Under the pieces are notes generated by a model, which was not told the DNA's origin, ran no database searches, and saw only the letters and a program-made list of their open reading frames with translations. From Somniosus microcephalus (lineage: Eukaryota): a stretch of DNA of 64,000 bases. This document shows, piece after piece, positions 15,883-62,822 of this stretch (position 1 is its first letter; the number at the start of each line of letters is the position of its first letter). The position numbers were made by a program, and so were the translations under genes. The stretch spans positions 69,812,001-69,876,000 of the forward strand of contig CM126218.1 of the NCBI GenBank assembly GCA_052327205.1. The letters run 5' to 3'.

Positions 15883-16855
15883 ATAGTATGCAGATTGGGC
15901 ATACAAGGCTATGTCACAATATCACCGTACAGTGTTACTGGTTTATCAGCCCCTTCATCTTTCAGAAGTTGATTGTAGAGTTAATTGTGTGTAATTTTTT
16001 CGAGCCATTCGTATTGCAGTTACAGAAATGCAGGTGAGCTTCTTTTCCTGGAAGAGGAGTCAGTCTGGGGTTCCTTGCGTGTCTGTTTGTGATTACAGGG
16101 TGGCATTGACATGGGTTAAGTGATCTAATGTCCTGCCATGCTCTCTTAGGCTGTGCTGTATCAGGCAATGTTCATGGTACTTGGGGGCAAGGCAAAACTC
16201 CGAGGTTTTACTAAATCCAGTTTTACTGAGTGATTTCTGCGAATTGTTGTATGTACCTAGCTGAACTTGACTGATGTCTGACCATGGCTACTTCAATTTG
16301 GTGGGGAAGAAGGAGGTGCCTGATAGAAGTTACTGCTTCAAAATATTTATCCTTAATATTTTGTGGTTAGGAAGAGGGAGTTTGAAATGTGTCAACTTAT
16401 GGAACATTTTTTTTGGTGCCTATCTGATTTTTGCAAAGCAACTTGAATAATGTTTCGATGTGTGGAGTAAATACAAGAGTAAATACAATTCTATTAGAGG
16501 GAGCCAGTTAATACTGGTTCAGTAAGCTGAGGACAGGTCTTTTTTGTTGTAAAATGACCATTGCCAATCATAAGTAGCACTTGGCTTTTCTCTGTAATGA
16601 ATAAGTTTCTTTGTTACTTGCTTAAACTTCTGTGTGTTTCTAAGTAGCTCTGAAAGTGCACCAATCTTCTTGGAGCTGCCTGTTGTAGTTCTAGAAATAG
16701 ACTCGTAAACTTAACGGAGTCCTAGAATCCAGCTTTAAATGGCCTGACATTTTGTAAGGAAATTTTGTTTTTAAAAATCTTGCAAAATTGGATCCTGATA
16801 GATTAGTTTTGACTGTTGAAGGTGCTAATAATTCTGTACCTGAGCCAAATCTGAG

Positions 16856-16906
16856 ATGGAGGATTGGGAAGGAACCTTTGCAGCTTTTGAAGTCCCTCAC
16901 TGGAGG
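16856..16906 (+). CDS. AHCYL2: AHCYL2 alternative first coding exon, MEDWEGTFAAFEVPHWR
   Basis: Strong Kozak gagATGG, 17 codons, phase-0 donor AGG|GTGAGT compatible with exon 2. Aligns with the recalled human short-isoform N-terminus MEKWDGNEGTSAFHMPEWM. Confidence 0.85.
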
Positions 16907-17659
16907 GTGAGTGATGTAAAGTCTTGTACCGTACAAGTTTTATTCTGTAAAATTAATTAATTAATCTGTAATAACCTACCTGGTGGGTAATAAATGGTTA
17001 ACAACCAAACCATGTGGTGTTACTAGGATTTCTGTGAAGAGTGGGAGTGGTGAAATGTTCATTCCATATCCACTTGTACTGTGAAAAACACCTAGCAGTA
17101 CAATTCTAGATTTTGGGTTGTGTCTGGGAGAGCATTTTAAACGATATAGCAATAGGCTTCGGTTCAAACAGTTATGGTCTTGTCACTTGTGAGGATGAGA
17201 GCAGTTTGATGTGATGAATTAAGGACATTACAGAAGAAGTAAATTGTTGAACATTAAAGTGTATTGGTTGAAGTTTTTCTGTCGGATATTAATATGCTTA
17301 AAAAGCTTAACAGCTGCATTGTGCCTTCTGCCCTCACAAATGGGAGACATTAACTGGACACCATGGGTAAAAGAAAATGTGTTGCAGAAGTGAGGCACCT
17401 GCTTTCTGTTTGTGCCACATATTGGCACTGAGTTTTTGCAAATTGTATATCTTTGTGCCATATAATTAAAAAGCATGCAACTATTTTTGATAGTGCATTG
17501 CCTCTTACATTTAGGTGTGAGACCACCAACCATTTGCAGATTTGATGAGGGATGATGATCTGCACTTGGTGACTAACTAGGTCCTCCTTAGGGGTAAGTG
17601 GGATTTTACCCACAAGTGGGCTCTCTTTGGGTTTAAGGTGGAACCTCCTTTTCCTCAAT

Positions 17660-21484: not shown

Positions 21485-24200
21485 GTACGGAGGGTGAAAC
21501 TGCACTTGGTTGGCTGAAATTGCTTGGATGTGTTGTAGAATGATTTTAGGGTGGTCTTTTTGGACCATGTTCATAGTTGTATTGTACAGAACAGGAATAT
21601 AGCAGTATCAATCCAAACTTTTCATTTCTTAGTATATGAAAAGGTTTTTCTGCTGAGCTTTCTAATTCTATGTGGTTCACAGCAATGTTGTTTTAGTCCC
21701 AGAAACCATTTTAGTTTTAGACTCTTTGGATATTGAGTTTTAGTCTTGGTATATTTATAGTGTTCAGAGGACATTTAGTTTTAAACATATTTTTTGTTCC
21801 CAAATTTTAATTGTCTTTTAGTCCTGGAAAATATTTTAATCAGAACATTTACTTTCTGCTTTTGATATTAGTGTTGTTTTTTCAGGATTTTCTTAATTTA
21901 TATTTCAAAACATATCAACTGTTTCACTTCTCAAGTCACAAAAATGTGGACTATTTAACTGGTGTTCTAGTCCTAGAAATAATTTTAGTCTAGTTATACT
22001 TCTCCAAACCTATTCAGTTTTATTCAATTTTTAATTTTCATAATTTAATCCTAAATTTAGTTTGTCAACAATATATCTTCCTTACTTTAGATGACACAAA
22101 CCACACTGGTTTACAATTATCATGATACAAACGAGGAGAAGCAGCAGTTGTGTTTTTTATTTTGCTGTGTGTGTCTGTACCAGGCAGAGCATTGGCCCAT
22201 ATCCATGTCGCTGTACCAGGCTGGAGTCTCCCCTCAATATCCACGTGTCTGTTTTTGTTTTGGCCACAGGGGCTTGGACAGATCAATTTATTCATTTTTT
22301 TTATTCCTCAATGTTTCTTTTGCAAGTTTTCCTCATTTAATATCTCCTTTTCCTCACTCGGTCAGTTGAAGAATGGCGCCTCTGACAGTGCAGCAACCCC
22401 TCAGTACTGCACTGGAATATCAGCCTACATTATGTGCTCAAGTTGTGGAGTGAGGCTTGAACCTGTAGCTTTCTGATTTGGGTGAGCGTGCTATCAACTG
22501 AGCCAAGATAAATCATACCCACGTTATCTTGTTACTTTTTGCGTTGGTGTGCACCTGAAACCAATCCACATCAACGCAACTGAGGCAGTGTCGCTGCTGC
22601 ACAAGACGCATTTAAGACTTGGTGTTCTTGCCTTTGTGATGTGTGATGGGATTTTTTTTGTGTATTATGTAGATACTTTTAAATCAGAATTAATATGCCG
22701 TGCTATTTCTGTATGCTGGAAATAGTGGGCTGAGCATGGTGGTATGCAGCCTTGTCGCACTGCTTAACCCTGAGCTGTCCCATTGCCACGGGAGTTTTGT
22801 TGCAATTCCAGAACATTACCCACTTGGCCTCCTTTCTTACTCCCTCCACTACTGAAACACTCATCCCCACCATCACCTCGAGGATTGATTTCTGTAATGC
22901 ATTCCTTTCTAGCCCCCTCCTTCTCTGCTTTTCACACATTCTGGATAATCCAGGGCTCTGCTTCCTGAGTCCTCCTCTTCACAAAGCCCCATCTTCACCA
23001 AGCTCCACTGACTCCATGTGCTCCACCAAATTAGCTTCAAGACCGTTCTCGTTGTTTTCCGACCTCTCTGACGCCTCACCTCACCATATATGGGAAACCA
23101 GTTTTCCAGCTGCACGGCATATCCCGCACCCCCTCTTCCTCTGGCTCCAGATTGTTGATCATCTCCTGTCCTCCAGGACACACTCTACCAGAAGCACTCC
23201 TAAATTCATTATTCCCTACTTGCCGTCTGCCTCTCCTCCTTGTAACGTGCTCTTCAGACATTCTTTTACACCAGGAAGATTACGTCAATGTAATTTGTCA
23301 CTAAACTGTTTTCCCACTGATTAGGATCTCTTCACCACAGGGTCATAATTTAGCAACAACTTGATTGTAAACTGGCTGCTGAATTGTCTCGGGAGGGCTG
23401 GGTGTGGTTGTATTATTTCACTGACCAATGCAACCTATTTTATCTGAACAGTAATTGTGATGCGTTTAGTGCCGTTTCTTGACACAAAAGGTGGAATCTC
23501 TGTTGATGGTTTTTTCCTTCTCCATCCTTTTTGCCATCCAGGCATTGCAATTTTGAGGGGAATGGGGGGAGAGGCGTATAACCATGCGTCTTACTCGAGG
23601 CTGGGGATTAAAAGAGGGCAATGACTGAAATGTGAAAATCATTATGAAAAATTATTGCAGATTTCAGTATTTATACTGATCCTCTGGAAGGTCAGTAATC
23701 CTGTAAATGTAGCTTTGTTTTAACCTGGTAATATATCATGGATTCCTCGTGATTGATCGGCATCAGCACTGACGATTTCTGGATTTCTTCTTGGTTTATT
23801 AGCTGGTTAAGGAGGGCAGAAAAGTTGTTCCTGCAGCTCTGTCAATGCTGCTGTGTAACCAGTGGGTAGGTATGAAGGAGCAGGAGGGGATTACTGTCCT
23901 GATAATTAAAAAAATATATACCTGTGTATATATTTTACCCTCTCTTGTGGCAGAATGGCCTCCACTCATCACCTGTCTGCCCCCACCCCCTCCAAGTGGT
24001 AACAGCAATGTTGTGCACTTACCATATCGGGGAAGTGCTAGCCAGATCCCACACCTACCCACCATATGGCATGGTGCATTGGTTGAGCCAATACACTGTG
24101 CAACCCAGTTAAGTTGTTTATAAACACCGGTAAACATGCTGATCCCAGATTCTTGAAACCAATCTACAGTAAATACCCTTTCCATTTTTCTTATGAATAG

Positions 24201-24494
<294 letters not shown>

Positions 24495-26420: not shown

Positions 26421-26450
26421 AACTGATGGGTATGTCTAATCAAAATAATG
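26421..26450 (+). CDS. Candidate cassette microexon in intron 2 (9 nt ELM or 30 nt ELMGMSNQNN)
   Basis: Branch point cactaac (26388-26394), long pyrimidine tract plus cag, donors gtatgt (26430) and gtaagc (26451); both keep phase 1 with no stop. Confidence 0.55.
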
Positions 26451-34391: not shown

Positions 34392-34634
<243 letters not shown>

Positions 34635-36271
34635 TAGAACCATGGCAAAGCATAATTGACAGCCATTGGCAAGCAAGGGTTCCTGCAATGGGCAGGCTAG
34701 CTGAAGCCTTCCTACTAGCTTCTGTTGTGAAGTGCCGCTCTCCCCACAAGGCGTACCCTAATCAGAATAAGTGATTTTTAGCCTCCTCCTGGAAGCTGAG
34801 ATGCACTGTAGACTGGGGCCCATTCTTGGAGGTCCAGTCAGCATAAACTGCTCTGCCCTTCTCAGCACAGTGACCCATGAAGGCCAACAATCCCAACCCA
34901 TGTGACCAGTAGCAAGCCGGTCCTCCCAACCCCTTCCATCCCAGACCCAACTAAGACCAAAAAGGTTGCTACGGCCCTTTGATCCATTCTGCTCAACAGG
35001 GTTTGCACTCTTTTGCCAAGAAACCTAGGTGTATGAATACACCCCTCGTACAAAGCACCATGCAATCAAAATGCTACAGCAGCTTCATAAAATATACATG
35101 TGAATGTTTGCTCCTGAGGATTCAAATTATAAAAAATAAAAAAAATACTGTTGCTTTGTGGCAATCGGGAGTTCAGACTTTGACAAGATAATGAATGCTG
35201 TTGCTTGGAAGTAGCATGTCCTACAGATAGTATTCTCGGTGTAGTGAGAGGCTATCACCCGAAGCATGTCCCCCGCCATACACTGCCAACTATAGAATGA
35301 AGTGTGCTGACCACTGCATAGACACCGTTTATTGGGGTTCACTGCTCATCAGCGGTCTTCCAAGCTGCTGTTAGCTGAAACAGAAGACTGGAACTGCAGC
35401 GGAGCAAAGTATCAGGCATCATATTCAAGTATAAACAATAATGAAAAGGCTGGGACGGTGTGTCTATTGATAGATTATTCCGATGGGGAGGACCAGTGTT
35501 TAAACTAAGCAAAAGTAGGAATAGACTGGATGTCGAATGGTTCTTTTCCCAGAGAGTAGTGAGCCTCTGGAATGTGTTGCCAGCTGGTGGCGGTGGACAC
35601 TGGCTCTCTGTATGCCTTTGAGAGGGAGCTTGACTGGGGCAGAGATCACCATGTAGAAGGCAAGTGGATTAACAGATAACGTACACGTGGTAAGTGTGAT
35701 CTCCTGGACTGCCTTAGATTGCCTGAAGGTATTGGAGAGGAATTTTCAGAAGGTTTTTTCCGCATATTCGTCCTGAATTTTTTCCCCCTGGTTTTTTGCC
35801 TCTCCCCAGAGGTTAGATGGTTTCTGGGGGGGTAAGAAGTGTCCAGCCATGATGCTCCAGGCATCATGAATGTGTGGCAAGCATGATGGGCCAGCTGGTC
35901 TTTTCCTGCCTGTTGTTTCCATATGTTTGGATTGGGCACTTTTAACATTTAAACTGGAAACGTGCATACCTGATTCTTGCTGGATAAGGGAGACATTCCC
36001 TTTGATTCAGTTATGGCAGAGGGGAGTGCGAGTTGGTTTTGTCAGTGTTGTGCGATGCTCTCTCCCAAGTTCGGCTTTATCCAGTAGGATGTTCAAAATC
36101 CAAATGTTCTCCATTTAACATTTTTAAATGTTATTTTCACTTGTGATCTAACCACACCTCTCAGTCTTGCTTTATTCTGTTGTCTGCTGTAGATTAAAAG
36201 GGAACAACTTGGAGTTCCCAGAGTAAACTCATAATGTCAACCAATCCACCGTGTGTTCCAATAGATTCTGA

Positions 36272-36409
<138 letters not shown>

Positions 36410-37514
36410 TAAATCCCCAGTTATTAAAATCAGGGGGGGGGTGCAGGGCGACTGGCTTAATTAGCACGCTGTCCATAACGGCTGTTCCAATCCAGCCTGG
36501 CCTAATGAAATTCAAGTTCTTTCTGTAGGTTACTGTGTGAAATTAGTTTTTGCTTTACTTTTTACTATTGGATGTTTCCTATACTGAAGCCTGTACATTT
36601 AGAGCCAGAAATAGGGAGGCAGCAACCAGCAGCATGTTAAATAACTGCCAGCACTTTGTTCCACACCAGGTTCATGTGCCATCTGATTTTCTGTAGTCAC
36701 CCATGGCACCTTTAAACTCTTTACTAACTAAAATGAATGTGCTATTTACTCCACGCTGTGAAGGTGTGCCATGTGAAATCTGTGACACCTTGTGTTTATA
36801 CTGATCAGGCTGTATTCACCTCCAGTCCGTCAGTTTTACAGTTCAATGTTTTACATTTGCAAGTATTCCACGTCTGTAATTTCAATACGAACGTGGCAAA
36901 CAGCAATGTCATACCAGCTCCTGCAGGTGGCAGTGCTGAGCTATCGGAAACAGCACCACCAGCAGGCACTTCATTGTTCCTGTTTGACTGCATTTGGGTT
37001 AGTGGTATTTGCATAGCCCCTCACTACTACAGCAGAGTGCACAAAACCATTTAATCACTACACGGTTATCCTTAATAATAGACTGGCTTATGTTCTTAAA
37101 CTGCCACCAACTCTGTGTGAGCCTTTTCTTTCTTTTTCTCATCATTTTCTCAAGCTGATGATTCATGCTGGGTGCATTTCTTCTGTGTGTGTTTCCAGCA
37201 GGGATCACTGGATAGGAATTGGGATCTTGTGGGAGTCTATTTTACTTGGTAAAATCAAGTGATAATTTTAACAGCAAAATACAAATCATTTCACTGGTAA
37301 CCTGATCTTTGTCACTTTAAGTGGCTTCCCAGTATAATCCTGAAATACGCATTCATTGGTTATTATGCAACGAGCAGTTAATACAAACAGTGCTTTTTCT
37401 TAAAACGTAATGATTTAACTAGAATATATGCAATTACTTTTTCTACCCAGTAATCTAGTGGGCACTAAACCTAGCATATTGCCTGCAAATCTGCAGTAAA
37501 TACGCTGAGTTCTT

Positions 37515-37820
37515 GGGCAGCACCTTCCAAACTCACGACCTTTACCACCTAGAAGGACAAAGGCAGCAGGCGCGTGGGAACACCACCACCTCCAAGTTCC
37601 CCTCCAAGTCACACACCATCCTGACTTGGAAGTATATCGCCGATCCTTCATCGTCGCTGGGTCAAAATCCTGGAACTCCCTCCCTAACAGCACTGTGGGA
37701 GTACCTTCACCACACAGACTGCAGCGGTTCAAGAAGGCGGCTCATCGCCATCTCAAGGGCAACTAGAGATGGGCAATAAATGCTGGCCTTGCCAGCAATG
37801 CCCACATCCCATGAACAAAT
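37515..37820 (+). mobile_element. 3' end of the same LINE family as 32050-33115
   Basis: Shared text gggtcaaaatcctggaactccctccctaacagcactgtgg...gggcaataaatgctggcc. Confidence 0.8.
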
Positions 37821-37864
37821 ATTTTTTTGTAACGTTCACTGAACAGGGCTAATGAGTTGGGCTA

Positions 37865-38149
37865 TGATGGGCCTTCAATAACCACAAAACTAGAAGTTAT
37901 AGACTTAAACAAGTTGGCTTTTAATCACTAAGATCAGAGCTAACCTCTCAACACGCCGACTGGTTCACAGGAATGAGTCATACAGATCCTGGGATCTTTA
38001 TGTAAGAGAAGTCGGGCGGAGCCAAGAGCCAAGACCTGGAACCTCCCAGGTTAGTCGGGAAAGAGGAAGTGAAACTATACACAGTGGGGGAGGGTAATAT
38101 ACATGAGTGCAAAACGAATACAGGATCAAGACAAACAGATTTCATTACA
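37865..38149 (-). repeat. 3' LTR (285 bp)
   Basis: Direct repeat of 41899-42185, adjacent to the PPT. Confidence 0.95.
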
Positions 38150-38190
38150 TTCACCCCTGCTATAGACTTAGTCCATCGGGGTGATGTTTC

Positions 38191-41100
38191 TTAAAAGTTG
38201 GTATAAGTGAGTCTGTCAGGAGGTTTTGCAGTTCTCAGTGATTGGCGCAAAGCCGGTTGGGGTGCCTCTAGAGAAGTGGATTCTGGTTCCTCCGTTGTCC
38301 GGGCCTCCGCAGTGTCTTCCAGGTTAAAGTTGGGTATTGATACCTCTGGGCGTCCTGTCTCTTTGTAGTGTAGGTCTTCATCGGGTAGTCTCCCATCGTT
38401 CTCTCCGCTCCCCGAGGGAGCGAGGTCTTTTATGGAAACAGTGTCCTCGCGCCCGTCAGAGTATTCGATATAGGCGTACTGAGGGTTTGCATGGAGGAGC
38501 TGTACCTTTTCCACAAGGGGGTCCGTTTTATGGCCTCTCACGTGCTTCCGCAATAGTACTGTCCCTGGAGACGTCAGCCACGCGGGTAGAGATATGCCCG
38601 AGGTGGATTTCCGGGGGAAAACGAACATCTTTTCGTGAGGGGTAGCGTTAGTGGCAGTACATAACCGAGACCTTATGGAATGGAGCACGTCTGGGAGGAC
38701 TTCCTGCCAGCGGGAGGTCGGAAGGCCTTTTGACTTTAAGGCTAACGTGACAGCCTTCCAAACAGTAGCATTCTCCCTTTCCACTTGCCCATTACCCTGG
38801 GGTTGTAGCTAGTGGTTCTGCTAGTGGCTATCCCCTTCGAGAGCAAGAACTGGCGCAGCTCGTCACTCATGAATGACGTCCCCCTATCGCTGTGTATGTA
38901 GTTCGGCATGCCAAACATGCAGAATAGATTACAGAGACACTTGATGACCGTGGCACTGGTCATGTCTGGGCAGGGAATGGCGAAGGGGAAGCGGGAATAT
39001 TCATCGATGATATTGAGGAAGTATACGTTACGGTCGGCAGAGGGAAGGCGTCCCTTGAAGTCCAGACTTAGGCGCTCGAATGGCCGTGTGGCTTTGATAA
39101 GGTGTGCACGGTCAGGCCTGTAGAAACGAGGCTTGCATTCCGCACAGATGCGGCAGGCCCTGGTCATTGCCCTAACCTCCTCGATGGAGTGGGGCAGATT
39201 GCGGGACTTTATAAAATGGTATAGTCGTGTGACCCCTGGGTGACAGAGGTCGTTGTGGAGACCCTGTAATTTGTCCGTATGAATGCTGGCACACATTCCC
39301 CGCGATAGGGCGTCTGGGGGTTCATTAAGGGCTCCCGGCCTGTACATAATATCATAGTCGAACGTGGATAGTTCGATCCTCCACCTGAGTATTTTGTCAT
39401 TCTTGATTTTCCCCCTTTGTTATTAAACATGAAAGCCACCGACCGCTGGTCGGTGAGCAGGGTGAAACGTTTGCCGGCTAGGTAGTGTCTCCAGTGCCGC
39501 ACTGCCTCCACTATAGCCTGTGCCTCCTTCTCGACAGAAGAGTGCCTGATTTCAGGTCCCTGAAGGGTTCGGGAGAAGAAGGCCACAGGTCTCCCAGCCT
39601 GATTGAGGGTCGCAGCTAAGGCAAAGTCTGACGCATCGCTTTCGACTTGAAAGGGAATGCATTCGTCCACTGCACACACTGCAGCCCTTTCAATGTCCTG
39701 TTTAATACTGGTGAAAGCCTCCCGAGCTTCAGCTGATAGTGGGAAGGACGTCGATTTAATGAGGGGTCGGGCCTTATCAGAGTAATTGGGCACCCATTGG
39801 GCATAATACGAAAAAAATCCCAGGCACCTTTTTAAAGCTTTGGGATTGTGTGGCAGGGGCAGTTCCTTTAGGGGGCGTAATCGGTCAGGGTCCGGTCCAA
39901 TTACCCCATCTTCCACCACACAGCCGAGGATACAGAGACGGGTTGTGTTGAAGACACAGTTGTCTTCGTTGTAGGTTAGATTCAGCTTTAGGGCAGTTTT
40001 AAAAAATCTCGCAAGATTTAGATCGTGGTCTTGCTGGTTGTGCCCGCAGATAGTGACATTGTCCAGATAGGGGTAGGTAGCTTGTAGTTTATTCTCGTCA
40101 ACCATGCGGTCCATCTCACGTTGGAAGACCGAGACCCCATTTGTTACCCCGAAGGACACTCTGAGAAAATGGTAGAGGCGCCCGTTCGCCTCGAAGGCGG
40201 TGTATGGGCGGTCCTCCGTTCTAATGGGGAGCTGGTGATACGTGGATTTGAGGTCGATAGTCGAGAAGACTCGGTATTGCGCAATCTGGTTGACCATTTC
40301 TGATATGCGGGGTAAAGGGTAGGCGTCCAGCTGGGTATAAATATTAACAGTCTGGCTGTAGTCAATTACCATCCGTTTCTTTTCGCTATTTTTAACTATG
40401 ACTACTTGGGCACGCCACGGGCTGGTACTGCATTCAATAATGCCTTCCCGCAGGAGTCTGTCCACTTCCGCCTTGATAAAGTGTCTATCTTCCAGACTGT
40501 ACTGTCTACTTTTGGTCGCTATGGGCCTACAGTTCGGAGCGAGATTAGCGAATAAAGAGGGCGGGCTGATTTTTAAGGTTGATAGGCCACAGACTGTGAG
40601 TGGCGGCTGGGACCCGCCATATGCTAGCGTGACACTTTCGTGGTGGCACTGGAAGTCCAGGCCCAAGATTACATTAACACAGAGTTCTGGCATCACGAGG
40701 AGTTTAAAATCCTTGTAGTCCGTGCCTTTTACAGTCAGTGTTACCACACAGTAGCCCAAAATGTCCGAAGCGTGGGGCTTAGCAGCCATAGCAATTCTGC
40801 TCCGTGTAGGGGTTACCGTTAATGAGTGCCGCCGTACCAGGCTAGGGTGGATAAAACTCTCGGTACTCCCAGTCAATTAAACATTTCATTAAATTCCCGT
40901 TTACCTGTATGTCCATCATGGATTTTGTCAACGGGTGTGGCCTGGATTGATCCACCGTGATCGAAGCCACTGTTGGGCCCTGGGCGGCCGTTGAGTCGGG
41001 AAAAGACGGCGGATCCCAAGATGGCGGCCCGCACGGCACGCACGAGGCGGTGACGGAGTTGGAAATCGGATTCCCCCTGCAGACTTTGCTAAAATGCCCC

Positions 41101-41873
41101 TTTTTCTTACATTTGAAGCATGTAGCGTCCTTCGCTGGGCATCGTTGTCTGGGGTGCTTGGCCTGGCCGCAGAAGTAGCATTTTGGGCCTTGAGACATTG
41201 CCGCTGTAGTAGGACTCCTGGGTGAACTTCTGTGTGGGGACTCCGGCGGCGTAGAGCTGGTCTGAGACCTGGATGGGGAAGATGGCTGATTCCAAGATGG
41301 CGGCCCCCTCGGCGTGCACGAGGCGGTGAGGGCCGCATGGCCGGAAGAATAAGAGTCAGAGTTTTTCTGGGCCACGTCCAGCGATCGCGCAGTGGCCACT
41401 GCCTTTTTTAAGTCCAGGACCACCTCCTCCAGCAGTCTCTGCCGGATATAATTCGATTTGAGGCCCGTGATGAAGGAATCGCGGACCAATTCGTCAGAGT
41501 ACGCGTTGGCCGTCACGGCCTTGCAGTTACAGTCCCGGACCAGGTCCTTTAGGCCCTGTAAGAAATCGTCCATTGATTCCTCTGGTCGCTGCCTGCGTGT
41601 AGCCAGCAGATGTCTGGCGTACACTTCGTTTACCGGCCTCTGGTATTGGGCCTTCAGGATAGTGATGGCCTCCGTGTAAGAGGTGGCGTCCCGGATGAAC
41701 GAATAAATCTGATGACTTACGCGAGTAGTCAGCAGACTCAGTTTATCTACCTCGCTAGCGGATGAGGCCCCCGCGAAGAGTTCGAAGCATTTGAGCCAGT
41801 GTCCCAATTGATTTGATGCTTCAGCAGAATGTGGATCCAAGTCCAGACGCTCTGGTTTTTGGAGTCGATCCAT
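38191..41873 (-). pseudogene. gag-pol of the Gypsy element, broken by three frameshifts
   Basis: Gag with two Zn knuckles (CYFCGQAKHPRQRC, CFKCKKKGHFSKVC); protease LID/TGS split near 40870; RT (IDLKS, YLDN); RNase H (ESDASD); frameshift near 39410; integrase HHCC and D,D,E with a frameshift near 38795; no chromodomain visible. Confidence 0.93.
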
Positions 41874-41898
41874 CCTAGTATTCTTTAGTGATTAAAAT

Positions 41899-42185
41899 TG
41901 ATGGGCCTTCAATAACCACAAAACTAGAAGTTATAGACTTAAACAAGTTGGCTTTTAATCACTAAGATCAGAGCTAACATCTCAACACGCCGACTGGTTC
42001 ACAGGAATGAGTCATACAGATCCTGGGATCTTTATGTAAGAGAAGTCAGGGGCGGAGCCAAGAGCCAAGACCTGGAACCTCCCAGGTTAGTCGGGAAAGA
42101 GGAAGTGAAACTATACACAGTGGGGGAGGGTAATATACATGAGTGCAAAACGAATACAGGATCAAGACAAACAGATTTCATTACA
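41899..42185 (-). repeat. 5' LTR (287 bp)
   Basis: Differs from the other LTR by one substitution and one 2-bp indel. Element-sense GC box, CATAAA, Inr-like TCATTCC and ATTAAA. Confidence 0.95.
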
Positions 42186-42473
42186 GGCTAAATGGCCTTT
42201 ACTCCAATCTGTTGAGACTCATTTGAAATGGTTGTAAATGAGTTTTCTTCTGGGTAGAGCAAGGTGCTGAAGGATGCTTTGCAGAGGCAGACTGTGTGGG
42301 GTTATGTGAAGTAATCGTGTTTATTTGGGGAGGAAGGGATATAAACTTTACAACATGAGGTGGTACGTATGCTGAGCCTGAGGTTTAAATCTACCTGTTT
42401 TAACTGAGTAGTTGCGAGTGAGCAGCGTCTGGTGTCCCGCTCCCTTTTTCGTGATCTCTCTGCCTTGTTTTAA

Positions 42474-42608
<135 letters not shown>

Positions 42609-43974
42609 TAAAATCACAGTTGGCGTATCTAAATGATTGTTTTCCCCATTCTGTTCAATACTTTTTACACACCCTCAGTACTCCACTGGAGTGCCGGCCT
42701 AGATTTTTGTGTTCAAGTCTCTGGAGTGGGACTTTAACCCACAAACTTCTGACTCCGAGGCGAGGGTGCTACCAACTGAGCCACAGCTGACACTAAAATA
42801 TCGGTAAAGTTTAGGAGTGGTACACAAAGGGCCATAATTTGTTGGAGTGAATCTAGCGGTGTCTGCCGTTAGTTAGACTTGCTTTTTCCTGTTTAATCTC
42901 GACGGTACTTTGTGTCGCAAGTTGCTGGAAGTGCGAGCTGAAAAACTTGCAGCGAAGGAAACCAGGTATCTGGGACCCGAGTGAACAGGACAAGCAACTG
43001 TGTACCTCCTTACCGATTCAGATTGAAGAATTGTGAAACAAACAGCGCAAGGACTGAGAATGAAGAGTAAATTAGAGTGGGTGAATTCAATGTCAAATCA
43101 GGTAGAAAAAGAGAAATAAAGTTAGAAGGAAGGAAAGATTGTATTACGAGAGAGAGAAAATAGACAGAAAGGAAAAGTAAAAAAAAAAGTTTTAATTTTA
43201 AATTTCACATTTTTAAAATATCCAACAACAATTAAAACCCGAGAGAATGAGACACCACACTTAATTTTCAGTGCCAAAGTGGTTCATTGGCAGTAATTAA
43301 CAATTAGCACATCCATAAAAGAATCTCGACAGCAAATCCAGACTTAATTAAATATGTGCCGACCTTAAATGTCAATCACATTCAGTATTGTGTCCGCCTC
43401 AACACTGAGCCAACGCTAGCTGCGGATAAAATAAGAGTGCTGCACTCTAAGCAGGCAGCGTTTTTGGACACCTTGCGAGACTGAAGAGCCAACCTACTGG
43501 GATGTAATTTTCTGGTTAAGTTGAATACAGGGTGCTGAAAAATAAAAATCTGATTTTTTAAAAAACAGATCCTTCAACCGTCTCAGCCTTACTCTTTGGA
43601 ACTATCCCCATTAACCTTGCTACTTATCTCCCAGCCTTTAAAAACATCCTCAAAACCTACTGCTTGCCATCCGTTCCTGCTTTGTGAAGCGCCTTGTGAT
43701 GTTTTCTCCATTAAAGGTGCTGCATAAATGCATGTTGTTGATGTACATGAACATAATGAGACATGGTCTTGTTGCCTTATAGTCAAAAAAAGATGCTGTA
43801 ACTGACAGCCTCCTGATGTTCGAGGTGAACCTTTCAGTAGCCCACTCATGTATCAGTTCAAGAAAAAATTCTTCAGTAGGTCCACTTTCAAACTTAATAA
43901 AGTGCAAAAAAGAATGATCCGCTGAATTTAAATTGGTCAGGCACTGAGTATATTTCTGTGCTGGAAAACGTTAA

Positions 43975-45150
43975 ATCTGCAAATGTAACGCCGCTATTCA
44001 AGAAAGGAGAGAGAGAGAAAATGGGGAACATCAGTCATTGGGAAAATGCTAGAATCCATTGTTAAGGAAATGGTATCAGGGCACTTAGAAAATCGTAACA
44101 TGATTAGGCAGAGTCAACATGGTTTTATGAAAGGGAAATCGTGTTTGACAAATTTATTGGAGGTTTTTGAGGATGTAACTAGCAGGGTAGATAAAGGGGA
44201 ACCAGTGGATGTAGTATATTTGGATTTCCAAAAGACATTCGATAAGGTGCCACATAAAAGGTTATTACACAAGATAAGGGCTCATGGGGTTGGGGGTAAT
44301 ACAGTAGCATGGATAGAGGATTGGTTAATGTACAGAAAACCGTAAGGATAAACGGGTCTATTTCAGGTTGGCAGGCTGTAACTAGTGGGGTGCCTCAGCT
44401 ATTTACAATCTATGTTAATATCCTAGACGAAGGGACCAAGTGTAATGTATCTAAGTTTGCTGACAATACAAAGCTAGGTGGGACAGTAAGCTGTGAGAAG
44501 AACAGAGTCTGCAAAGGGATATAGATAGACTAAGTGGCAGTGAGGTGGCAGATGGAGTATAATATAGGGAAATGTGAGGTTATTCACTTTGGTAGGAAGA
44601 ATCGAAAAACAGAATGTTTTTTAAATGTTGGTGTTCAGAGAGATTTGGGTGTCCTCGTGCAAGAAACACAGAAAGCTAGCATGCAGGTACAGCAAGCAAT
44701 AAGGAAGGCAAATGGCATGTTGGCCTTTATTGCAAGGGTGTTGGAGTATAGTAAGGAAGCCTTGCTACAATTGTACAGGGCTTTGGTGAGACCACACCTG
44801 GAGTACTGTGCACAGTTTTGGTCTCCTTATCTAAGGAAGGATATATTTGCCTTGGAGGCGGTGCAACAAAGGTTCACTAGATTGATTCCTGGGGTGAGAG
44901 GGCTGTCCTATGATGAGAGATTGTGTAGAATGGGCCTGTACTCTCTGGAGTTTAGAAGAATGAGAGGTGATCTCATTGAAACATACAAGATTCTGAAGGG
45001 GATTGACAGGGTAGATGCTGAGAGGTTGTTTCCCCTGGCTGGAGTGTCTAGAACTAGGGGGCATAGTCTCAGGATAAGGGATAGGCCATTTAAGATCAAA
45101 ATGAGGAGGAATTTCTTCACTGAGGATTGTGAATCTTTGGAATTCTCTGC
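43975..45150 (+). mobile_element. CR1 LINE RT fragment (decayed)
   Basis: QHGFMKGKSCLTNL, YLDFQKTFDKVPH, KFADNTKL, VRPHLEYCAQFWSP across frameshifts. Confidence 0.92.
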
Positions 45151-46016
45151 CCCAGAAGTCTTGAACCCCCCCCCCCCCCACCACCAGATCCTGATTGTTA
45201 ATACAGCTTGTAGTTTCAGTGTAGAGAGATAGTTCTGCTAGTAATAAAATTGGGAGCTGTTTGATGCAGGACTGAGCTGGGATCAGTGTAAACTCTGGAG
45301 TCAGGCTTACCTGCTGGAGACGCAGTACCCAACAGAAACTATTAACAGTGGTAGGGAGCTCTATCCTACAGATCGCTTGGCCATAGTCTACTCTGAGCAA
45401 GTGATTGGATGTGACTAGCTGCCATGATAGTTATGTGGCAAGTTTTATGTTGCAGCCTTTATGTTTACCATGGTGTTTCAAGTAACCTGCTTGTCATGTG
45501 CTCTGTAGCCTGGCAAATTGTTTGACAATAATGACAAATATAGCTAAAATATTCTGTTATGGTACTTGCTTCTGACAAAGAAGTCTGAATAGAATCAACG
45601 TATCTATGCTAAGAATCCCCAAAATAACTTGAATATGGGACAGATTACACAGCTATAATTGTGGGTTTCAGATGTTGATTACAGACCATTCGAGCTTCAC
45701 TCCTGAGTTCATAACGTCATCTGAACCCATCTAAGATTATTGCCTAGTAATCAATCTCGAGTATCCTTCAAAACACTGATTCCTTCAATTACATTCCAGC
45801 CTTCGGCTTGCTCCTGGGTATTCCTTTTCTGTAGATTCCAGCCTGTAATGCATTCCTGGGTATCCATTGTTCTGTGTTTAAATTTTGATCCTACAAGGAA
45901 ATATTGTTGGTAAATGTCCTTATTAATGTGTGGCCCTTGTCCCAATTTAAAGAATTGAATAATTATAACCGAAAAGGGTATTTGGATTAGTTCTTTCATC
46001 CAGTAACTGAAAGTGA

Positions 46017-46196
<180 letters not shown>

Positions 46197-47101
46197 TGAA
46201 GAACTGCTCTGTAATGTAATCTTTCAAAGTTTGATCAGTTTGCATATATAAATTAGAAAAATGCTTTTCAAAAGCAGAGTATTGCTGTCATTAAATTCAT
46301 TGTTAAATATTTAGACTTTTATTTTTTGTGTGTATGGCTGCTGATTCCAGTTAAAAATGTAAAATATTTCCTTTGGGTTTGAGACGCAATGTGTTTGATC
46401 AATAATTTACACAGTGGGACATAACTGAAGGTTCCTGTGCCTGTCTACCAGCCTATCCTTCATACTTTTGACACTGGCCACCGTTTTCAGCTATTCCTTT
46501 CAGGCAATCTAGAAGAAACTCGCTGATGCTGTGAAAATATTTAAATTGCCACTATCGGTGTTCAGGGTGTTTTTTTTTTGTGTTTTTTTTTAAGTGTAAA
46601 CACTTGATTTGGATAGGGAATTGGAAAGAAATGGCACATTGTCACAAGGACTGAAAGATGCAAAGGATATAGAAATGTTAGCATGATGGGAAGATAGGGA
46701 ATTCAATGTAGGGAAATGTGAATTGGAAGTAAGAATACTGGAAGAAATATACCTCAACTAGCAAGATTTTAGAGGAGCAGAAGGACCTTGGTGTGCAGAT
46801 ACACCGGTGGTAGCAGAAGTAGATAAAGCCATAAAAAGGCAAACTAAATCTTTGGTATTGTATCTACAGGCATATGATACTGGCAGTGCAGATATTGTTC
46901 TCCCTTTATCCTTTTTTGGAAGGGTGGAGATGGTATCTGGAGCATCTTTATAGAACCTCCCCTGAGGAGATTACACAGGTTAGGTAGAGTTCATAGTGGA
47001 TGGATTATACAAGCCCGTGGAATGAATGGGTTCTGGGGGTGGGTGAGGGTAAGGGGATGGGAGGGGAATGGCTTCTTCTTTGCTTTTCTTCTTAAACTTG
47101 A

Positions 47102-47338
<237 letters not shown>

Positions 47339-48876
47339 TGAGAGTTACTCTAATATACAAACTGCTTAGCTAAACTTCCTTGTCCTTGATTTATTGATCC
47401 TACTATAGTTCTCTTGTTCCTCCTAACATTGAAATGTGTCATTCTACACGCTCTTCCTCCTCCCTGAATCCTCATTGTGTTGGAATTGAGACTCATCGCG
47501 CCATCTCCTTTTCTAGCTAATTATGGAACATTATTCCTTCTTCCTACAAGCCTTTAAAGTCCAAGCTTGACGGGCAGATTCCACCACTTTCTGGGCAGTG
47601 ACATTTGGTGGGGCTTTGCCAGAAGAGCAAATTACTCTGTCCATTCTGGGTGTGCCCCCATGCCCCCCGACTTTCTATCATCTGAGCAGCAGTCCGAGAT
47701 GCCCCAGAGAGCATGACTGTCCTCTCAATCTCTGCAGACACCCCACCCCTCAACCCCCCCAAATAAACCACGCTTGCTAGCATAACTGTTATTGATAGCT
47801 TTATTTCCCTACTGTGGAGAAGCACAGCCCTTACCACAACAAACGTGGGCAAAGCCATATGCCAATTGGAGCAGATAATGCTTGGATTCTAGCGTGTACG
47901 AGATGTACCTGGCAGTCTGAGCCATTTTCTGGCAGCTCTCGTACACACCCAGACCACCGCCCAAAGTGGGACAACAAACAAACAACTGCCTCCCACTACC
48001 CCTCACAAAGAGCAGTGACCCTACCTTGCAGGCATACAGGCCACTTGATATTCCCCTGATTCAGCCAAGCCCTAGAACTGCCAACAAATTATCCCAGCTC
48101 TGAAACAATATGTCATTTCCAGTGTGTGTACAACCACACCTGTAACCCTAAGTTTGCCAGTGAATTCTCCTCTGTCTTGTGTGATACAGCTGTACAGTGA
48201 CTTTACAAAGTCACTTCCAGAGCCTTTGCCCCCAGGCCACTGGGGAATCAACGTTTGCGTTTTTATAATTCTATAAATAGTTGCATGTTTTGGATATTAA
48301 TGCTTTCAAAGTATATTTTTGACTGGTTTTGATGAGCTGATTTGACATAGACCGTGAGCACAAATTCCAGAATATAATTGGAATTAACGTGTGGCACAAT
48401 ATACCTTCTCAACGTAAAGGGACTCTTGCAGAATTGCCAAATAAGTGGAGGTGGTTGATATGCAAGCGTCTCAATCTGATTTAGTCTGACTAAAAATGAA
48501 GTTTCTGCTTCCATGTTTGGGTGGAAGGTCCTTCAGAACACGTCACTCATGCCTCAAGTTTTCAGGTTTTTATTGGGTTTCATCGTACTACCTGATTCAC
48601 CTTTTTCTGTCTGTTGTGTTAGCTAATTCCATTGTAGCTCTCTGGCAGTTTTCTGGTCCTACAATTGAACCAGATATCTAGATGTTGAATTAAAAACCTT
48701 TGTCCAAGTTAGAATGCTAATGTAGTGGAAGACTATAGCAGATAACTGAATCGGGCAGCATTACTGCACCTTGGATGAAAGTGGGAGTGACGAGAGGCAG
48801 TCTGTTGAAAGTTATAGATCAGAATAAAGCAGAAACGTGATCCTTTTTATAATCTTTAGTGTGAGTTTTCTGTTAG

Positions 48877-49116
<240 letters not shown>

Positions 49117-49185
49117 TGACCTCAAACCAGCTTTACATTAAGATAAACAGAAATGTTTGTTAAATCCATTTGATAATGAAATAAT

Positions 49186-49941
49186 GGCCCAGAAATTCGG
49201 GTCGTAGGCTTCCCGCGGGTGCAAGCCTCCGACCTGCACTTGCCTAGCACGCCGGCCGTTGAGCGGTGGGCCCACGTGGAATTCCGATCCTGGGCCTCCT
49301 CCAACTGCCGGCGCGCAGTGCTTGCGTATCCCAGGGGCGTAGTTAGTTCGAAGCGTCCCCTGGGATCACGTGGACCATGGGGAGCCAATGGTAGCAGGGA
49401 ATGCTTCATTCATAAGTTTGACAGGAAGAGCTGTCAAACCTATAAATACTATAAGCCCCAAAACATCACTAAAACTTCAAATAATTTTTTTTTAATCACA
49501 TTTTAAAAATAACTATAAATTACATGAAATTATTTTAAACAATAATTAAAATTTTTGTAAAAATGAATTACATTTTCTAACGGGGCTAAAAATAAACTTA
49601 CCTTTCTTTAAAGTATTTAAAAATAATAAACCTGTGGGGAAAAATGTTTTAATTTTAATTAATTCGCCACTTACCTTGTTAAAAGCAGGCCTTGCACTTG
49701 CTTTTTAAAAGTGTAACTGCTGGAGACTTACCCTCCTGGAGAAAGCTGCAAAAAAAACATAAGTTCAATGTGCACGCGCTGCCTTTCCTGCGCACACGTT
49801 CAACTTCTGAACCCCTTTCAAGGGAACGGAAGTGCCGGTTTCCCGCGCATGCGCAGTGCATGCACGAAACCGGCACTTTCGTTGGGCCTACGCATGAGTA
49901 CCCCGTGCGTACTCGCGCGTTGGGACCCGAATTTCTGGGCC
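49186..49941. mobile_element. MITE copy 2 with perfect 18-bp TIR and 3-bp TSD AAT
   Basis: aat|ggcccagaaattcgggtc ... gacccgaatttctgggcc|aat. Confidence 0.9.
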
Positions 49942-50452
49942 AATGATCCAATAAATGGCAGCGCATATATCTAGAGATTTTAATGTGTGTTCTCAAGTCC
50001 TCACCCTGACCAAAAGTAATGATATTGAAAACTAACCATTCAGCCTCACAGTGGTAGGAAGCTAATTTGTGCCTCTGTTCTCTGCTGTACTTGTATGGGA
50101 AGAGCCCAAGTGGTTTCCCATAGGGAGAGAAAGCTTTAGGGAGAGCTGTGCTGGTGCATCTCCTGCTGCTTGGTGGAGGTCTGGTAGTGTGTCTCTGTTT
50201 TTAAAAATCTTTATTGATAAAAATACATGGAGTGGGAGGGGGGCAGGGGGAGATGAATAAAAATGGTAGTAAAAGTGAAGTTGTGAAAAGTTACTTCGTC
50301 AATGACTGACCTTTCTTTAGAAAGTCTGAATCCCTGCAGTTTGAAGGCAGGTGGCTTCTCTCCAGTTTTTAACCTGTTGAATGGATAAAGTTAGAAATAT
50401 AGTTAGTTTCTAGAGAGCATACTAGATCCTTCATTTGACCCCAGTATATATT

Positions 50453-50778
50453 CAGGAAACTTTTTTTTATACGGGACCGACGTGGTGCCGGTTCATCAAA
50501 AATTCTGGATAACCGAAAGCTATAGTAAAAGATACGGAGAGCTGACCGCTCCGTATAAAGCAACAAACCCTGTTGCTTAGCAACAAGTGCAGAACAATGG
50601 CCACAAGTTCCAAGCGTCTCTGTAGCTTAGCAACTGCTGCAGCCACACCCTTGCACAGCAACAGATCGAGGAAGGCAAGTACAAATATGAAGTAAAACTT
50701 ACCTGAACCTACTCCTGAATTTTGCCGGTTAACCGAGATTTCCGGTTATTTAGGTGCCGGTAAATTGAAAGTTTCCTG
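50453..50778. mobile_element. Tc1/pogo (Tigger)-like MITE
   Basis: TIR caggaaacttt ... aaagtttcctg, extending imperfectly to about 26 bp; repeated ccggtt motifs; TA TSD not preserved. Confidence 0.6.
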
Positions 50779-51558
50779 TTGATGGTGTGAGGTGCACCAT
50801 TAATGTTGGGTTTTCTGGAGATGACGTTATTTCCCTGAGCACGTGCATTGAACACATTTCTCCATCTCTGTGTCTCTGACTGATATTGCTCTCTGCCGGG
50901 CGGACGAGCAACACTGGCTGCTCATCGGGTTCGACGAGAGTTTTTGAAGAGGATCTAGGTGTGGAGAGGTGTGATACTTCTCTGCTCCTCTAACTCTTCC
51001 CCCATTCCACCCCTTCCCCCATATGGCGAGGTCTGGAGGGAGCTACAGAGTTGGGCACTCGGTCCTTTCTGCTGGAAGAGAGCAAAAATTTGAAGTAGTT
51101 GTCAATTTTAGAGCAGCACCAGCAGAGACTTTGGGTCAGATCATCTTCCACTGCTTCGGGGAAAGAGGAAAAAAATAAATTATTCAACCACGTGTTATAA
51201 ATCTCATCATTATAAAGAACTACTCGTGAAATAACGCTGGACGACCAGCTGGTGGCGCCGTCCAAGGAGTATAAATACTCGGACGTGGGCCCAGCTTACC
51301 AGGGATATTTTGTAAGACAGGAACTAGTGAAGTACAACTAGACCTCCATGTTCTAAAACAAGTTGATTAAAGCCTTGCTTTATACTCAAACCAAGTGCGT
51401 AGTGAGTTTTATTACGTCAAGGTGTATGCTTAAAAAGTCTTTATTCAAGAACTTAATTGTGGGTTTCCTAATTGGTTTGTCTTTGAGAAACATGGATATC
51501 GTAACAGTGAACGACTACAATACATTTCTGCTCAGTGTTTTGTTATTTTGAGAACTAA

Positions 51559-51717
<159 letters not shown>

Positions 51718-51827
51718 TAAACTATTGAGACCCCTGAATTGTCACTGTGAACCTCTTTAACCAGAGTTTACCTTCCAGCCTCAAACCAGCATTCTTTTCC
51801 TTTTGAGTAACCTATAGCTTGTACCGT

Positions 51828-52183
51828 GATCACATAATCACAGAAATCTCACAGTGCAGATAGAGGCCATTTCGGCCCATCGAGCCTGCACCGACACATC
51901 CCACCCGATCCCCGTAACCCCTACACCAACACATATCCCACCCTATCCCTGTAACCCCACGTATTTAATCCCCCTAACACTAAGGGTCAATTTTATCATA
52001 GCCAATCAACCTAACCCGCACATCTTTGGACTGTGGGAGGAAACCAGAGTACCCGGAGGAAACCCACGCAAACACGGGGAGAATGTCTGTGTAGAGTTTG
52101 CACAGTCACCCGAGGCCGGATTTGAACCCGGGTCCCTGGCGCTGTGAGGCAACAGTGCTAACCACTATGCCACCGTGCTGCCC
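51828..52183 (-). mobile_element. HE1-type (V-SINE) elasmobranch SINE
   Basis: - strand head gggcagcacggtggcatagtggttagcactg, B box gggttcaaatcc, V-domain-like core, CR1-like tail. Confidence 0.88.
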
Positions 52184-52859
52184 TTGATGTCAGTGGTGTG
52201 TTCTGTTTCCCAACAATGTTCTTTTAGGCGATTCATTTGCTGACATTCATTGGCAGGCTGCAGCTAAATCTGTGTCCTCAACTATAACCGAGCTTCAGGC
52301 AACCAAGAGAATCATTTTATAACCACTTCCCACATTAAAATATCAGGAGTTCTGATGGAAATCATCAACATTTCAGATTTTATGTGCAGTTTCAAAAAAG
52401 AAAAAGGCCACAAAGATTCAGTGCGTTTGATGGTGTTTGTACTTCAGAATGATGGGGTGTTGGCACCAACCACTGCTCCCCGTACAATTTTCAACAGCCC
52501 ATCGTGTTACTTTACCACAGCAGTTAAAATAGACATTTTAATTCCTGCAAGTTGGAGGAAATGTGACCGATGCAAACAAATTAAGCAGCAAATTTGGTTT
52601 TGTTTTCAGTATGTTCAACGTCTAAAACATTGTTCTGAATTGTATGTTGATGTTTGTCTGTGTTGTACAGTTTTTTTCCCTTTAGTTGCTAAGTTAGTTC
52701 TAAAAATAATATACGCTCCCACAGACACACAAAATTGAGCTGAGATGATGGTATTTTGGTAAATGCATGAACTCTAGAGTTAATGGGATGGATCCTTGCT
52801 TACATTCAATTCAACCCAACAGTGTGCTTAAAATGTGTCCGGTGATGTTTAAATCAGGA

Positions 52860-54260
52860 ATCACATTATCAGGACAACAGCACAGTTCAATATCGAAACA
52901 TGCAAATGACACAAAAGTGGGAAGCATGGTTAACTGTGAAGCTGACGGTAAACAGCTTCAGTAGGGCACAAACAGATTAGTAGATTAGGCAGAAAGATCG
53001 TGGATAAAATTTGATGCAGAGAAATATGAGGTGGGAGAATATTTTAGGAAGGAGAATAAGGAGAGCAAATATACACTGAATAGTAAAACTTTAAAAGGAG
53101 CAGAGAAAGTTCGGGGCACAAGCAAAATACTACAGATGCTGGAAATCCAAAACAACAAAGTGCTGGAAACATTCAGCAGGTCAGGCAGCACCTGTGGAGA
53201 GGACAGAGGAGTTGACGTTTCAGATGTTGATTTAGGGGAGCATGTTTCAAGGCTGCAATTTAAGATAATGCAGAGACTGGGATATGGTACAGGCTGTAGC
53301 ACAGGATAATGCAGAGACTGGGATATGGTACAGGCTGTAGCACAGGATAATGCAGAGACTGGGATATGGTACAGGCTGTAGCACAGGATAATGCAGACTG
53401 GGATATAGTACAGGCTGTAGCACAGGATAATGCAGAGACTGGGATATAGTACAGGCTGCAGCACAGGATAATGCAGAGACTGGGATATGGTACAGGCTGT
53501 AGCACAGGATAATGCAGACTGGGATATAGTACAGGCTGTAGCACAGGATAATGCAGAGACTGGGATATGGTACAGGCTGCAGCACAGGATAATGCAGACT
53601 GGGATATAGTACAGGCTGTAGCACAGGATAATGCAGAGACTGGGATATGGTACAGGCTGTAGCACAGGATAATGCAGAGACTGGGATATGGTACAGGCTG
53701 TAGCACAGGATAATGCAGAGACTGGGATATGGTACAGGCTGTAGCACAGGATAATGCAGAGAGTGGGATATGGTACAGGCTGTAGCACAGGATAATGCAG
53801 AGACTGGGATATGGTACAGGCTGCAGCACATAAAGCATTCAAGAGGACATAATGTAAGCAGAAGTTCAGTGGTCATTTTAAAAGTATAGATTTTTAAAAG
53901 TGGGAGGATAAGTTGATCGGGCTGTAAATACAGCATGTGTAATCCTAGGTTTTATAAATAGGGGTATAGAATACAAAGGTAATGCTAAACCTAACATCAT
54001 TGGTTAGGCTACAGTTAGAATATTGTGTCCAGTTTGGGCACCTTACTTTAGGAAGGATGTCTGGTCCATGGACAGGGTGCAAAAGTGCTTCACAAAGATG
54101 GTACCAGGGATGCAAGGCTTTAGTTATAAGGAGAGGCCAGAGAAACTGGGGCTCTTTTCATTAGAGAGAGGAGTTCTGATAAAGATGTTCAAAATATAAT
54201 GCAGGATAAGCTATTTTCACTGGTCGGTAAGTTGGTGACTAGAAAGCATAAATTTAAGAG
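52860..54260 (+). mobile_element. Old CR1 fragment hosting a Penelope-type terminal piece (about 53120-53225) and a minisatellite
   Basis: SKHANDTKV, YTLNSKTLKG, LVRLQLEYCVQF; cagatgctggaaat...gcaggtcaggcagca resembles the end of the PLE at 15400. Confidence 0.72.
53264..53830. repeat. Minisatellite, 14 copies of a 41-bp unit (three 39-bp variants)
   Basis: Unit gataatgcagagactgggatatggtacaggctgtagcacag, counted directly. Confidence 0.97.
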
Positions 54261-54808
54261 CTTATTGGGATGGAGTGCCCTACCAGAAGCATTCGGGGGG
54301 AGAAACCGAATCCACACCAGTACATAGTTAAAGAATGAACATGAAGTTGTCCGCTAATGTGAATACAGCACTGGGCCTCGTAAGGTAAAAGTAGCAAAAC
54401 AAGTGATGTCCTGTAACTTTTGTGTTTTGTGATGAAAGAGAATACGCTGGCTTTGAAGAAAATCTCCACTCAAAACTGTATCCTTCCAGTGCAGCTGTAA
54501 AGCTGTGAAGTTTGGTTCCTGTTTAGCTGGGTGTAGAGAGATATGGATTTGACACTGAGATTGGATGAAGATTAACATCTTGTTTCTGGTCCAAAGGGTG
54601 CGCTACATGGGCCTTTTAATGATCCAACTTTAGCATCCTAATGGAACTGTTTACCAACAGTATAAAGAAACCTGCCAATAGTGGCCTTGCAGCATGGAGT
54701 TTTTCTTTGTGTGAACCTAGAAACCATCAAAATGGTTGCAACATCTAGTTTGATCAGCAAGGACTACCTACAGTGGTCCTGATTGGGAAATTATGTAATG
54801 ATGACTAA

Positions 54809-54952
<144 letters not shown>

Positions 54953-56781: not shown

Positions 56782-57060
<279 letters not shown>

Positions 57061-57574
57061 TAATAATCACATTTAATGTTGATACAGGTTCAATATAACA
57101 AGCAGAAGTTTCTTTTTAACAAGTTGGAATTAGTTAACCACTCACTGATTAAAGTTTACATTTGCTGGCTTGATTTCTTTTTTAATGCTTTAATCCTGGT
57201 TAGGATTGGATGGTTAAGATGAAGAAAATTTTAAAGTTTCTTTAGAAGAAGCTTTAAATATTTATTTATAGAAATCTTTCCAATTTTAGCTCCTCTGTAA
57301 AACCGGAATATCAGCCTACGGCTGTAGTGAATTTCACAGGTTCAACATGAAACAAGGAGAGCTTACCAAAGTTTTACCTGTACTGTTCCCTATTCCACTG
57401 CTGAAATAACCAGAAGGTGCCCAAGAACAATCCATGTGTTACATCTCACTACTGAGTCATCCAGGACTCTGCCTTCTGACCAGTCAGTCGCAACATCCAA
57501 AACACATACACAATGTAAAGCATTTACAACTCCATAACGATATCTTGATAAACCACCAAACTTGTGAGCTTTAA

Positions 57575-57896
<322 letters not shown>

Positions 57897-57939
57897 ATTT
57901 CAGTTAATGATGAAATATTCCCAAAGCTGTAAGATGTGG

Positions 57940-59300: not shown

Positions 59301-59493
59301 TTTCCACAATTACTCCCCCACCCTCCAGTCAAAGGTGCCTTTGACTCCTGATGGGTAGTTTCATGGATATCCGCATTCTTCTGGCATATCAAGTGCTTGT
59401 TTAGTTTAAATACCCTGAGCTGGTGAGGATGGAACCTCCCAACAGACCAATATTTCCAGAGAGAAGAGCTTATATGTATTGCTGCCTCAGTAA

Positions 59494-59631
<138 letters not shown>

Positions 59632-60134: not shown

Positions 60135-60230
<96 letters not shown>

Positions 60231-61763: not shown

Positions 61764-62063
<300 letters not shown>

Positions 62064-62465: not shown

Positions 62466-62822
<357 letters not shown>

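Follow-up and report, generated by a model that had tools for sequence, protein, structure and literature searches.

A predicted short start exon of AHCYL2 (Long-IRBIT) in Somniosus microcephalus that is as old as the jawed vertebrates

AHCYL2 (Long-IRBIT) has a short first exon of acidic and aromatic character, and a short exon in Somniosus microcephalus is very probably its orthologue in a cartilaginous fish. The Somniosus exon is located on the plus strand of the 64,000-nucleotide stretch of DNA that was analyzed, referred to here as the window. Its letters at positions 16856-16906 are MEDWEGTFAAFEVPHWR, with GTGAGT directly 3'. On sequence comparison, this predicted start exon is as old as the jawed vertebrates. 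The isoform of this ion-transport regulator is known from mammals and is carried by automatically annotated fish and bird models; its extension to cartilaginous fish is what is new here and is well supported by the comparisons below. Among the open-access papers listed by the literature searches, none deals with how this exon has been conserved in evolution, and none of the open-access cartilaginous-fish papers among the matches listed contains 'IRBIT'. Variable IRBIT N-termini are said to have been described in Xenopus by Wang in 2020.

An in-frame TGA stands shortly before the ATG, so position 16856 is the start codon of the short-exon frame. The start context, TCTGAG-ATG-G, has G at -3 and +4. 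This was called a strong Kozak sequence in the preliminary description and is better described as favorable, short of the full Kozak consensus; the GTGAGT donor named alongside it is present right after the exon. Scored with a matrix built from 15 internal donors of the same AHCYL2 gene (range 7.2-11.8), the short-exon donor reaches 8.1, a value equaled or exceeded by 1.0% of the 1,340 GTs in positions 1-24200. A distance of 7.3 kb separates the short exon from the common exon downstream, whose acceptor AG at 24199-24200 fits a phase-0 exon. Pairs of named AHCYL2 models with and without a Gln match the tandem NAGNAG acceptor found here.

Joined in frame to 16 downstream exons, the short exon gives a predicted AHCYL2 model of 507 codons that is intact, has no internal stop, and has only GT-AG introns (Table 1). 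The downstream exons were mapped by tblastn with three cartilaginous-fish proteins and then refined at their boundaries. The common exon encodes four serines with 3-residue spacing, the equivalents of IRBIT S68/71/74/77, which make up the Ser-rich region. The AdoHcyase-like domain is recognized by Pfam AdoHcyase or AdoHcyase_NAD pieces in 3 of the 5 exon-bearing frames scanned.

Table 1. Predicted features of the AHCYL2 gene in the window
Feature	Position	Strand	Details
In-frame TGA, five codons 5' of the short-exon ATG	16841..16843	+	
Short alternative first coding exon, AHCYL2	16856..16906	+	17 codons, 51 nt, phase 0, last codon AGG (Arg)
F-x-x-P-x-W core inside short exon	16886-16903	+	
Splice donor GTGAGT	16907..16912	+	predicted intron 16907-24200, 7,294 nt
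Tandem NAGNAG acceptor	24199..24203	+	exon starts 24201 or 24204, phase 0 (+/- one Gln)
Common exon	24201..24312	+	hydrophobic half of PP1-docking motif and IRBIT S68/71/74/77-equivalent serines
Cassette exon, Ser-rich region	26421..26450	+	30 nt, phase 1-1, also in shark models
Remaining 15 AHCYL2 exons, first to last	34420..63607	+	AdoHcyase-like domain
AHCYL2 exons, part 1	34420-34563, 36294-36394, 42489-42591, 46057-46151, 47231-47337, 48981-49097, 51588-51651, 54863-54951	+	
AHCYL2 exons, part 2	56982-57052, 57600-57694, 59521-59619, 60135-60203, 61935-62013, 62701-62821, 63601-63607 (holds stop codon)	+	

The gene is AHCYL2 and not AHCYL1, as judged from protein comparisons. Both exons tested against PDB entries are closer to 3GVP (AHCYL2) than to 3MTG (AHCYL1/IRBIT), with 36/37 and 33/33 residues identical to 3GVP. 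Core identity is 98.6% to Callorhinchus, 99.0% to Carcharodon, and 99.3% to Scyliorhinus; it is 97.5% to shrew and turtle and 89.6% to an aberrant Stegostoma model. The full window model is 97-99% identical to most AHCYL2 cores compared. The AHCYL2 tree is poorly resolved, is without an AHCYL1 outgroup, and places the window in no strongly supported small clade; thus, the taxon and paralogue calls rest on the identities and the PDB matches. Together with a cassette exon shared with two shark models, the core identities indicate an elasmobranch, most likely a shark but conceivably a ray. At the level of architecture, not of N-terminal sequence, the predicted short form resembles IRBIT (AHCYL1) in its short N-terminus, PP1 site, Ser-rich phospho-cascade, and AHCY-like domain, although IRBIT is a paralogue. 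The long exon 1, which encodes the LISN appendage, was not found in a search of the window sequence and presumably lies upstream of window base 1; the appendage is present in other cartilaginous-fish models. Alternative use of the long and short exons in this species is assumed by analogy with the models of other sharks.

Homologues were gathered from cluster representatives (90%-identity clusters). The exon-2 search returned 438 proteins from 447 candidates, of which the best 120 were taken and 90 of these are named. Two further searches returned 8 of 176 candidates and 252 of 401 candidates (best 120 taken), bringing the named total to 131; 30 unnamed matches were left out of the homologue counts. 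The homologous models are mostly pipeline predictions. Among the 131 named homologues listed, 8 models, representing 6 species, have a short N-terminus of the same type at this junction. The carriers of this F-x-x-P-x-W-M N-terminus are horse (4 models from two Equus species, taken as one lineage), pangolin, pigeon (P0122), sterlet (P0123), whitefish (P0125), and clownfish (P0126). In the last four, as in the window, F-x-x-P-x-W stands just before the junction and the phase agrees; the NAGNAG Gln is present in some and absent from others.

Several differences accompany this likeness. The window peptide has a net charge of -3, like the pangolin and horse versions; unlike the mammalian version, it is two residues shorter and ends in Arg, not Met. 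P0122, P0123, P0125, and P0126 also differ from the window in ending with Met. The bird and sterlet peptides carry the same charge of -3, the teleost peptides are neutral, and the first half of the peptide is divergent in sterlet and teleosts. Both teleost models belong to AHCYL2 copies that evolve faster, with cores 85-90% identical to that of the window, which may mean that first exons have been divided between the duplicates in teleosts. The source record calls P0125 'hydrolase-like protein 1'; its common exon reads as AHCYL2.

The resemblance to the mammalian N-termini is well above background. Among 317 ATG..GT phase-0 candidates in positions 1-24200, the short exon is the top match, with a score of 50 against the horse N-terminus and 47 against that of pangolin. 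When both strands of the entire window are considered (1,686 candidates), those with another ATG score at most 17 (horse) and 21 (pangolin), and the best score per Markov-simulated region (n=100) has a mean of 12.8, a standard deviation of 4.2, and a maximum of 27. Alignment with the pangolin and horse versions gives 9-10 identical residues and needs a gap of 2-3 residues. A profile HMM built from the six bony-vertebrate N-termini, with the window sequence left out, ranks the short exon 1st of 3,620 six-frame peptides at a modest E of 0.019; an HMM of the Lys-rich exon discussed below gave a spurious minus-strand match at E 0.082. Because the HMM value is modest, the case rests on similarity taken together with position, strand, and phase/splice context. 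F-x-x-P-x-W occurs 6 times in the 127,996 six-frame positions of the window, and the short exon is the only plus-strand occurrence one codon before a GT.

These comparisons bear out two proposals of the preliminary description, namely homology to the mammalian short AHCYL2 N-terminus and an origin before the split of cartilaginous and bony fishes, the latter through homologues that occupy this junction in mammals, pigeon, sterlet, whitefish, and clownfish. The 19 human residues given there are identical to those of the named pangolin model P0115, and the horse models differ at 2; no named human record is among the matches listed. The proposed pattern M-E-x-W-[DE]-G...A-F-x-[VM]-P-x-W proved too long. 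It is complete in only 2 of the 7 distinct N-termini (window plus six bony-vertebrate); its core, F-x-x-P-x-W, is present in 7/7, and M-x-x-W-[DE] in 6/7. This conservation narrows the functional content of the variant to the invariant F, P, and W and the usual W-[DE] near the start, so that four-point mutagenesis of these positions is well founded. Likeness to LIR, calcineurin LxVP, and Hox hexapeptide motifs, judged by eye, was dropped, since none fits all seven sequences. AlphaFold2 run on an 8-sequence alignment of short isoforms gave a mean pLDDT of 33.8, and the model was not used.

The claim that N-terminal Long-IRBIT splice variants set target selectivity reportedly goes back to Kawaai in 2017. 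The V3/V4 work of Kawaai et al. 2017 is described in PMC7966362 and PMC10111226. According to the former, short L-IRBIT variants V3/V4 exist and can mimic IRBIT, their expression is more cell-type-specific, stability and targets differ between variants, and V3 activates NHE3 (PMC7966362). The LISN appendage is described as blocking IP3R binding, and Ahcyl2 S151/154/157/160 as corresponding to IRBIT S68/71/74/77, in PMC4930912. The window exon is in phase with the common exon and homologous to the mammalian short N-terminus, which would place it in the V3/V4 class (17-19 residues); as in V3/V4, its short N-terminus would replace the long appendage at the same junction.

In the proposed mechanism, the short exon would be transcribed from an internal, probably tissue-restricted promoter and would replace the LISN appendage, generating an IRBIT-like protein of 506/507 aa. 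Since the appendage blocks IP3R binding and short variants mimic IRBIT, the short form should bind phospho-Ser-dependent targets, which are expected to be SLC4 transporters, NHE3, and IP3R. The F-x-x-P-x-W core would most likely serve in docking, as a short motif by which stability or the choice of partner is adjusted. N-terminal Long-IRBIT variants are reported to alter stability and target choice, and the open-access passages hold no explanation of how.

The aromatic motif might instead bind no outside partner but fold back on the AHCY core of its own chain (in cis) or of its multimer, and so regulate stability or access. This alternative is unlikely, though not negligible. It would agree with the differences in protein stability reported between variants in PMC7966362, and a complex prediction of whitefish residues 1-40 against two copies of residues 76-508 gave it weak support, at 0.44 (best of 3 controls 0.00), with at least 80% of contacts agreeing between runs and a partner pLDDT of at least 49. 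The mark used for such predictions is reached by 51/78 solved complexes and 2/108 mismatched pairs; at 0.60 or below, however, are only 5 of the 78 solved complexes, yet all 4 passing mismatches (of 180). Such a pass is rated more often wrong than right unless the interaction was likely beforehand. The prediction is also uncalibrated for peptides and disordered chains and gives no interface, and the 40-mer is the whitefish sequence, not that of the window, with 22 of its residues from the common exon.

A second motif spans the exon junction. The RVxF consensus for PP1 docking is [RK]-x(0,1)-[VI]-x-[FW], and its basic residue is not always essential. Among the 131 named homologues listed, this pattern is found at the junction in 82/82 long-type models, 0/8 bony-vertebrate models of the same type as the window exon, 0/14 Lys-rich models, and 7/27 other models. 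The long exon supplies the basic residue of the motif, and Met is the last residue of the short exon in each of the six bony-vertebrate examples. The window short exon matches the pattern with either acceptor (24201 or 24204). Its last codon, AGG for Arg, is one base away from the ATG for Met, and this Arg is one codon in one assembly.

IRBIT has its PP1 site at residues 40-44 and is dephosphorylated by PP1 at S68 (PMC5173324); mutation of the site gives a 'super-IRBIT' (PMC4464172). If no indel separates the paralogues here, counting backwards from the equivalent of S68 maps IRBIT 40-44 to the last residue of the first exon and the first four residues of the common exon. Because the site straddles the junction and the RVxF counts follow exon type, first-exon choice would set PP1 docking. 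The last codon of the short exon would decide whether the motif is complete, as it is by pattern with the Arg of the window, or incomplete, as with Met. It is conceivable, though less likely than not, that first-exon choice is a PP1 switch acting through the basic residue of the last codon, that AGG/ATG separates a PP1-sensitive cartilaginous-fish short form from a PP1-resistant, more persistently phosphorylated ('super-IRBIT'-like) bony-vertebrate form, and that F-x-x-P-x-W has been retained from the ancestor of jawed vertebrates as a docking motif not yet described. If true, the switch would explain at the sequence level why ion transporters are regulated differently by the short variants of mammals. 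For the mammalian variants, this PP1 argument may already have been published. The junction-spanning motif is a concrete prediction that is testable in mammalian cells without shark work.

The region upstream of the short exon bears on whether the exon has its own promoter. The 600 nt upstream are CpG-poor (o/e 0.15), a pattern scan of 860 nt upstream gave no TATA match, and no strong acceptor is present among the 30 AGs in 400 nt upstream (maximum 12/17 pyrimidines). A CpG-poor, TATA-less region without a strong acceptor fits a first exon but gives no positive sign of a promoter, and the alternative promoter named in the preliminary description is putative. The peptide could also be expressed from an internal exon, behind a non-coding upstream exon or a shared promoter, in which case the ancient feature would be a splice choice and not a promoter. 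The missing TATA match and CpG island would agree with this, and some upstream AGs have 11-12/17 pyrimidines, at the low end of the gene's true acceptors (11-16). Against it are the lack of a strong acceptor and the fact that 5 of the 6 bony-vertebrate examples begin at the homologous Met, the clownfish model having a 10-residue extension. An internal exon is thus judged improbable, and a first exon with its own promoter is the preferred reading.

Still more doubtful is that the exon is a homologous remnant no longer expressed in this lineage, for which the probability is very low. It would account for the finding that the 4 named cartilaginous-fish proteins among the matches listed, which are cluster representatives, all have a start other than the short exon, and that the window's short peptide is in 0 of the 30 unnamed matches listed; the 50%-identity representatives (38 matches) added no usable named or cartilaginous-fish sequence. 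However, clustering at 90% identity can be expected to conceal short isoforms, and the ATG, frame, phase, donor, and F/P/W are all intact despite the deep split, which is unlikely under neutral decay. Chance resemblance or convergence is already largely refuted: the peptide is short, requires a gap to align, and has sterlet and teleost counterparts that diverge in their first half, but its score stands far above the maximum of the 100 simulations, its gene, strand, position, and phase are all correct, and intermediate forms are found across the six bony-vertebrate species.

A second type of short N-terminus, Lys-rich and designated the KKKY type, is found in 14 of the 131 named models listed, in reptiles, birds, and mammals, and only in amniotes in this sample. 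Like the short exon described here, it is encoded by a short alternative first exon that uses the same acceptor, and like the acidic type of bony vertebrates, it is without the basic residue of RVxF. The window exon is acidic and does not belong to this type, which is unrelated in sequence and has the opposite charge (+2 to +4). No KKKY-type exon was found in the window, which covers 16.8 kb upstream of the short exon. The distribution suggests, within a limited sampling, that the acidic short form is the ancient one. The Lys-rich form is possibly an amniote addition, which the same limited sampling makes a lead only.

The Ser-rich region is also interrupted by a cassette exon. It adds 10 residues right after the S77 equivalent of the phospho-cascade and is preceded by a CTAAC branch-point match, a 17/17 pyrimidine tract, and six TGC triplets within 120 nt. 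Its peptide is also present in Carcharodon (white shark, P0137) and Stegostoma (zebra shark, P0067) and in no other of the 161 proteins listed. The cassette could be a microexon under regulation, possibly a neural one, and could alter the phospho-relay.

Repeats are present in and around the gene. A perfect 58-nt tandem repeat of 3.3 copies at 57671-57860 (+) is a recent duplication or an assembly artefact. Exon 57600-57694 has its final 24 nt and its donor duplicated by the repeat, whose copies provide identical donors 58 and 116 nt downstream, use of which would shift the frame. A 41-nt minisatellite at 53264-53830 has 14 copies with a 95% match. The intron between the 36294 and 42489 exons contains an LTR-retrotransposon-like element at 38194-41891 (-), with the integrase domains rve and Integrase_H2C2 in several separate frames and a gag-like frame that was judged by eye and has no Pfam match. 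A LINE-type element is located 5' of the short exon, with a 632-codon open frame at 12373-14268 (+) that matches Pfam RVT_1 (E 2e-40).
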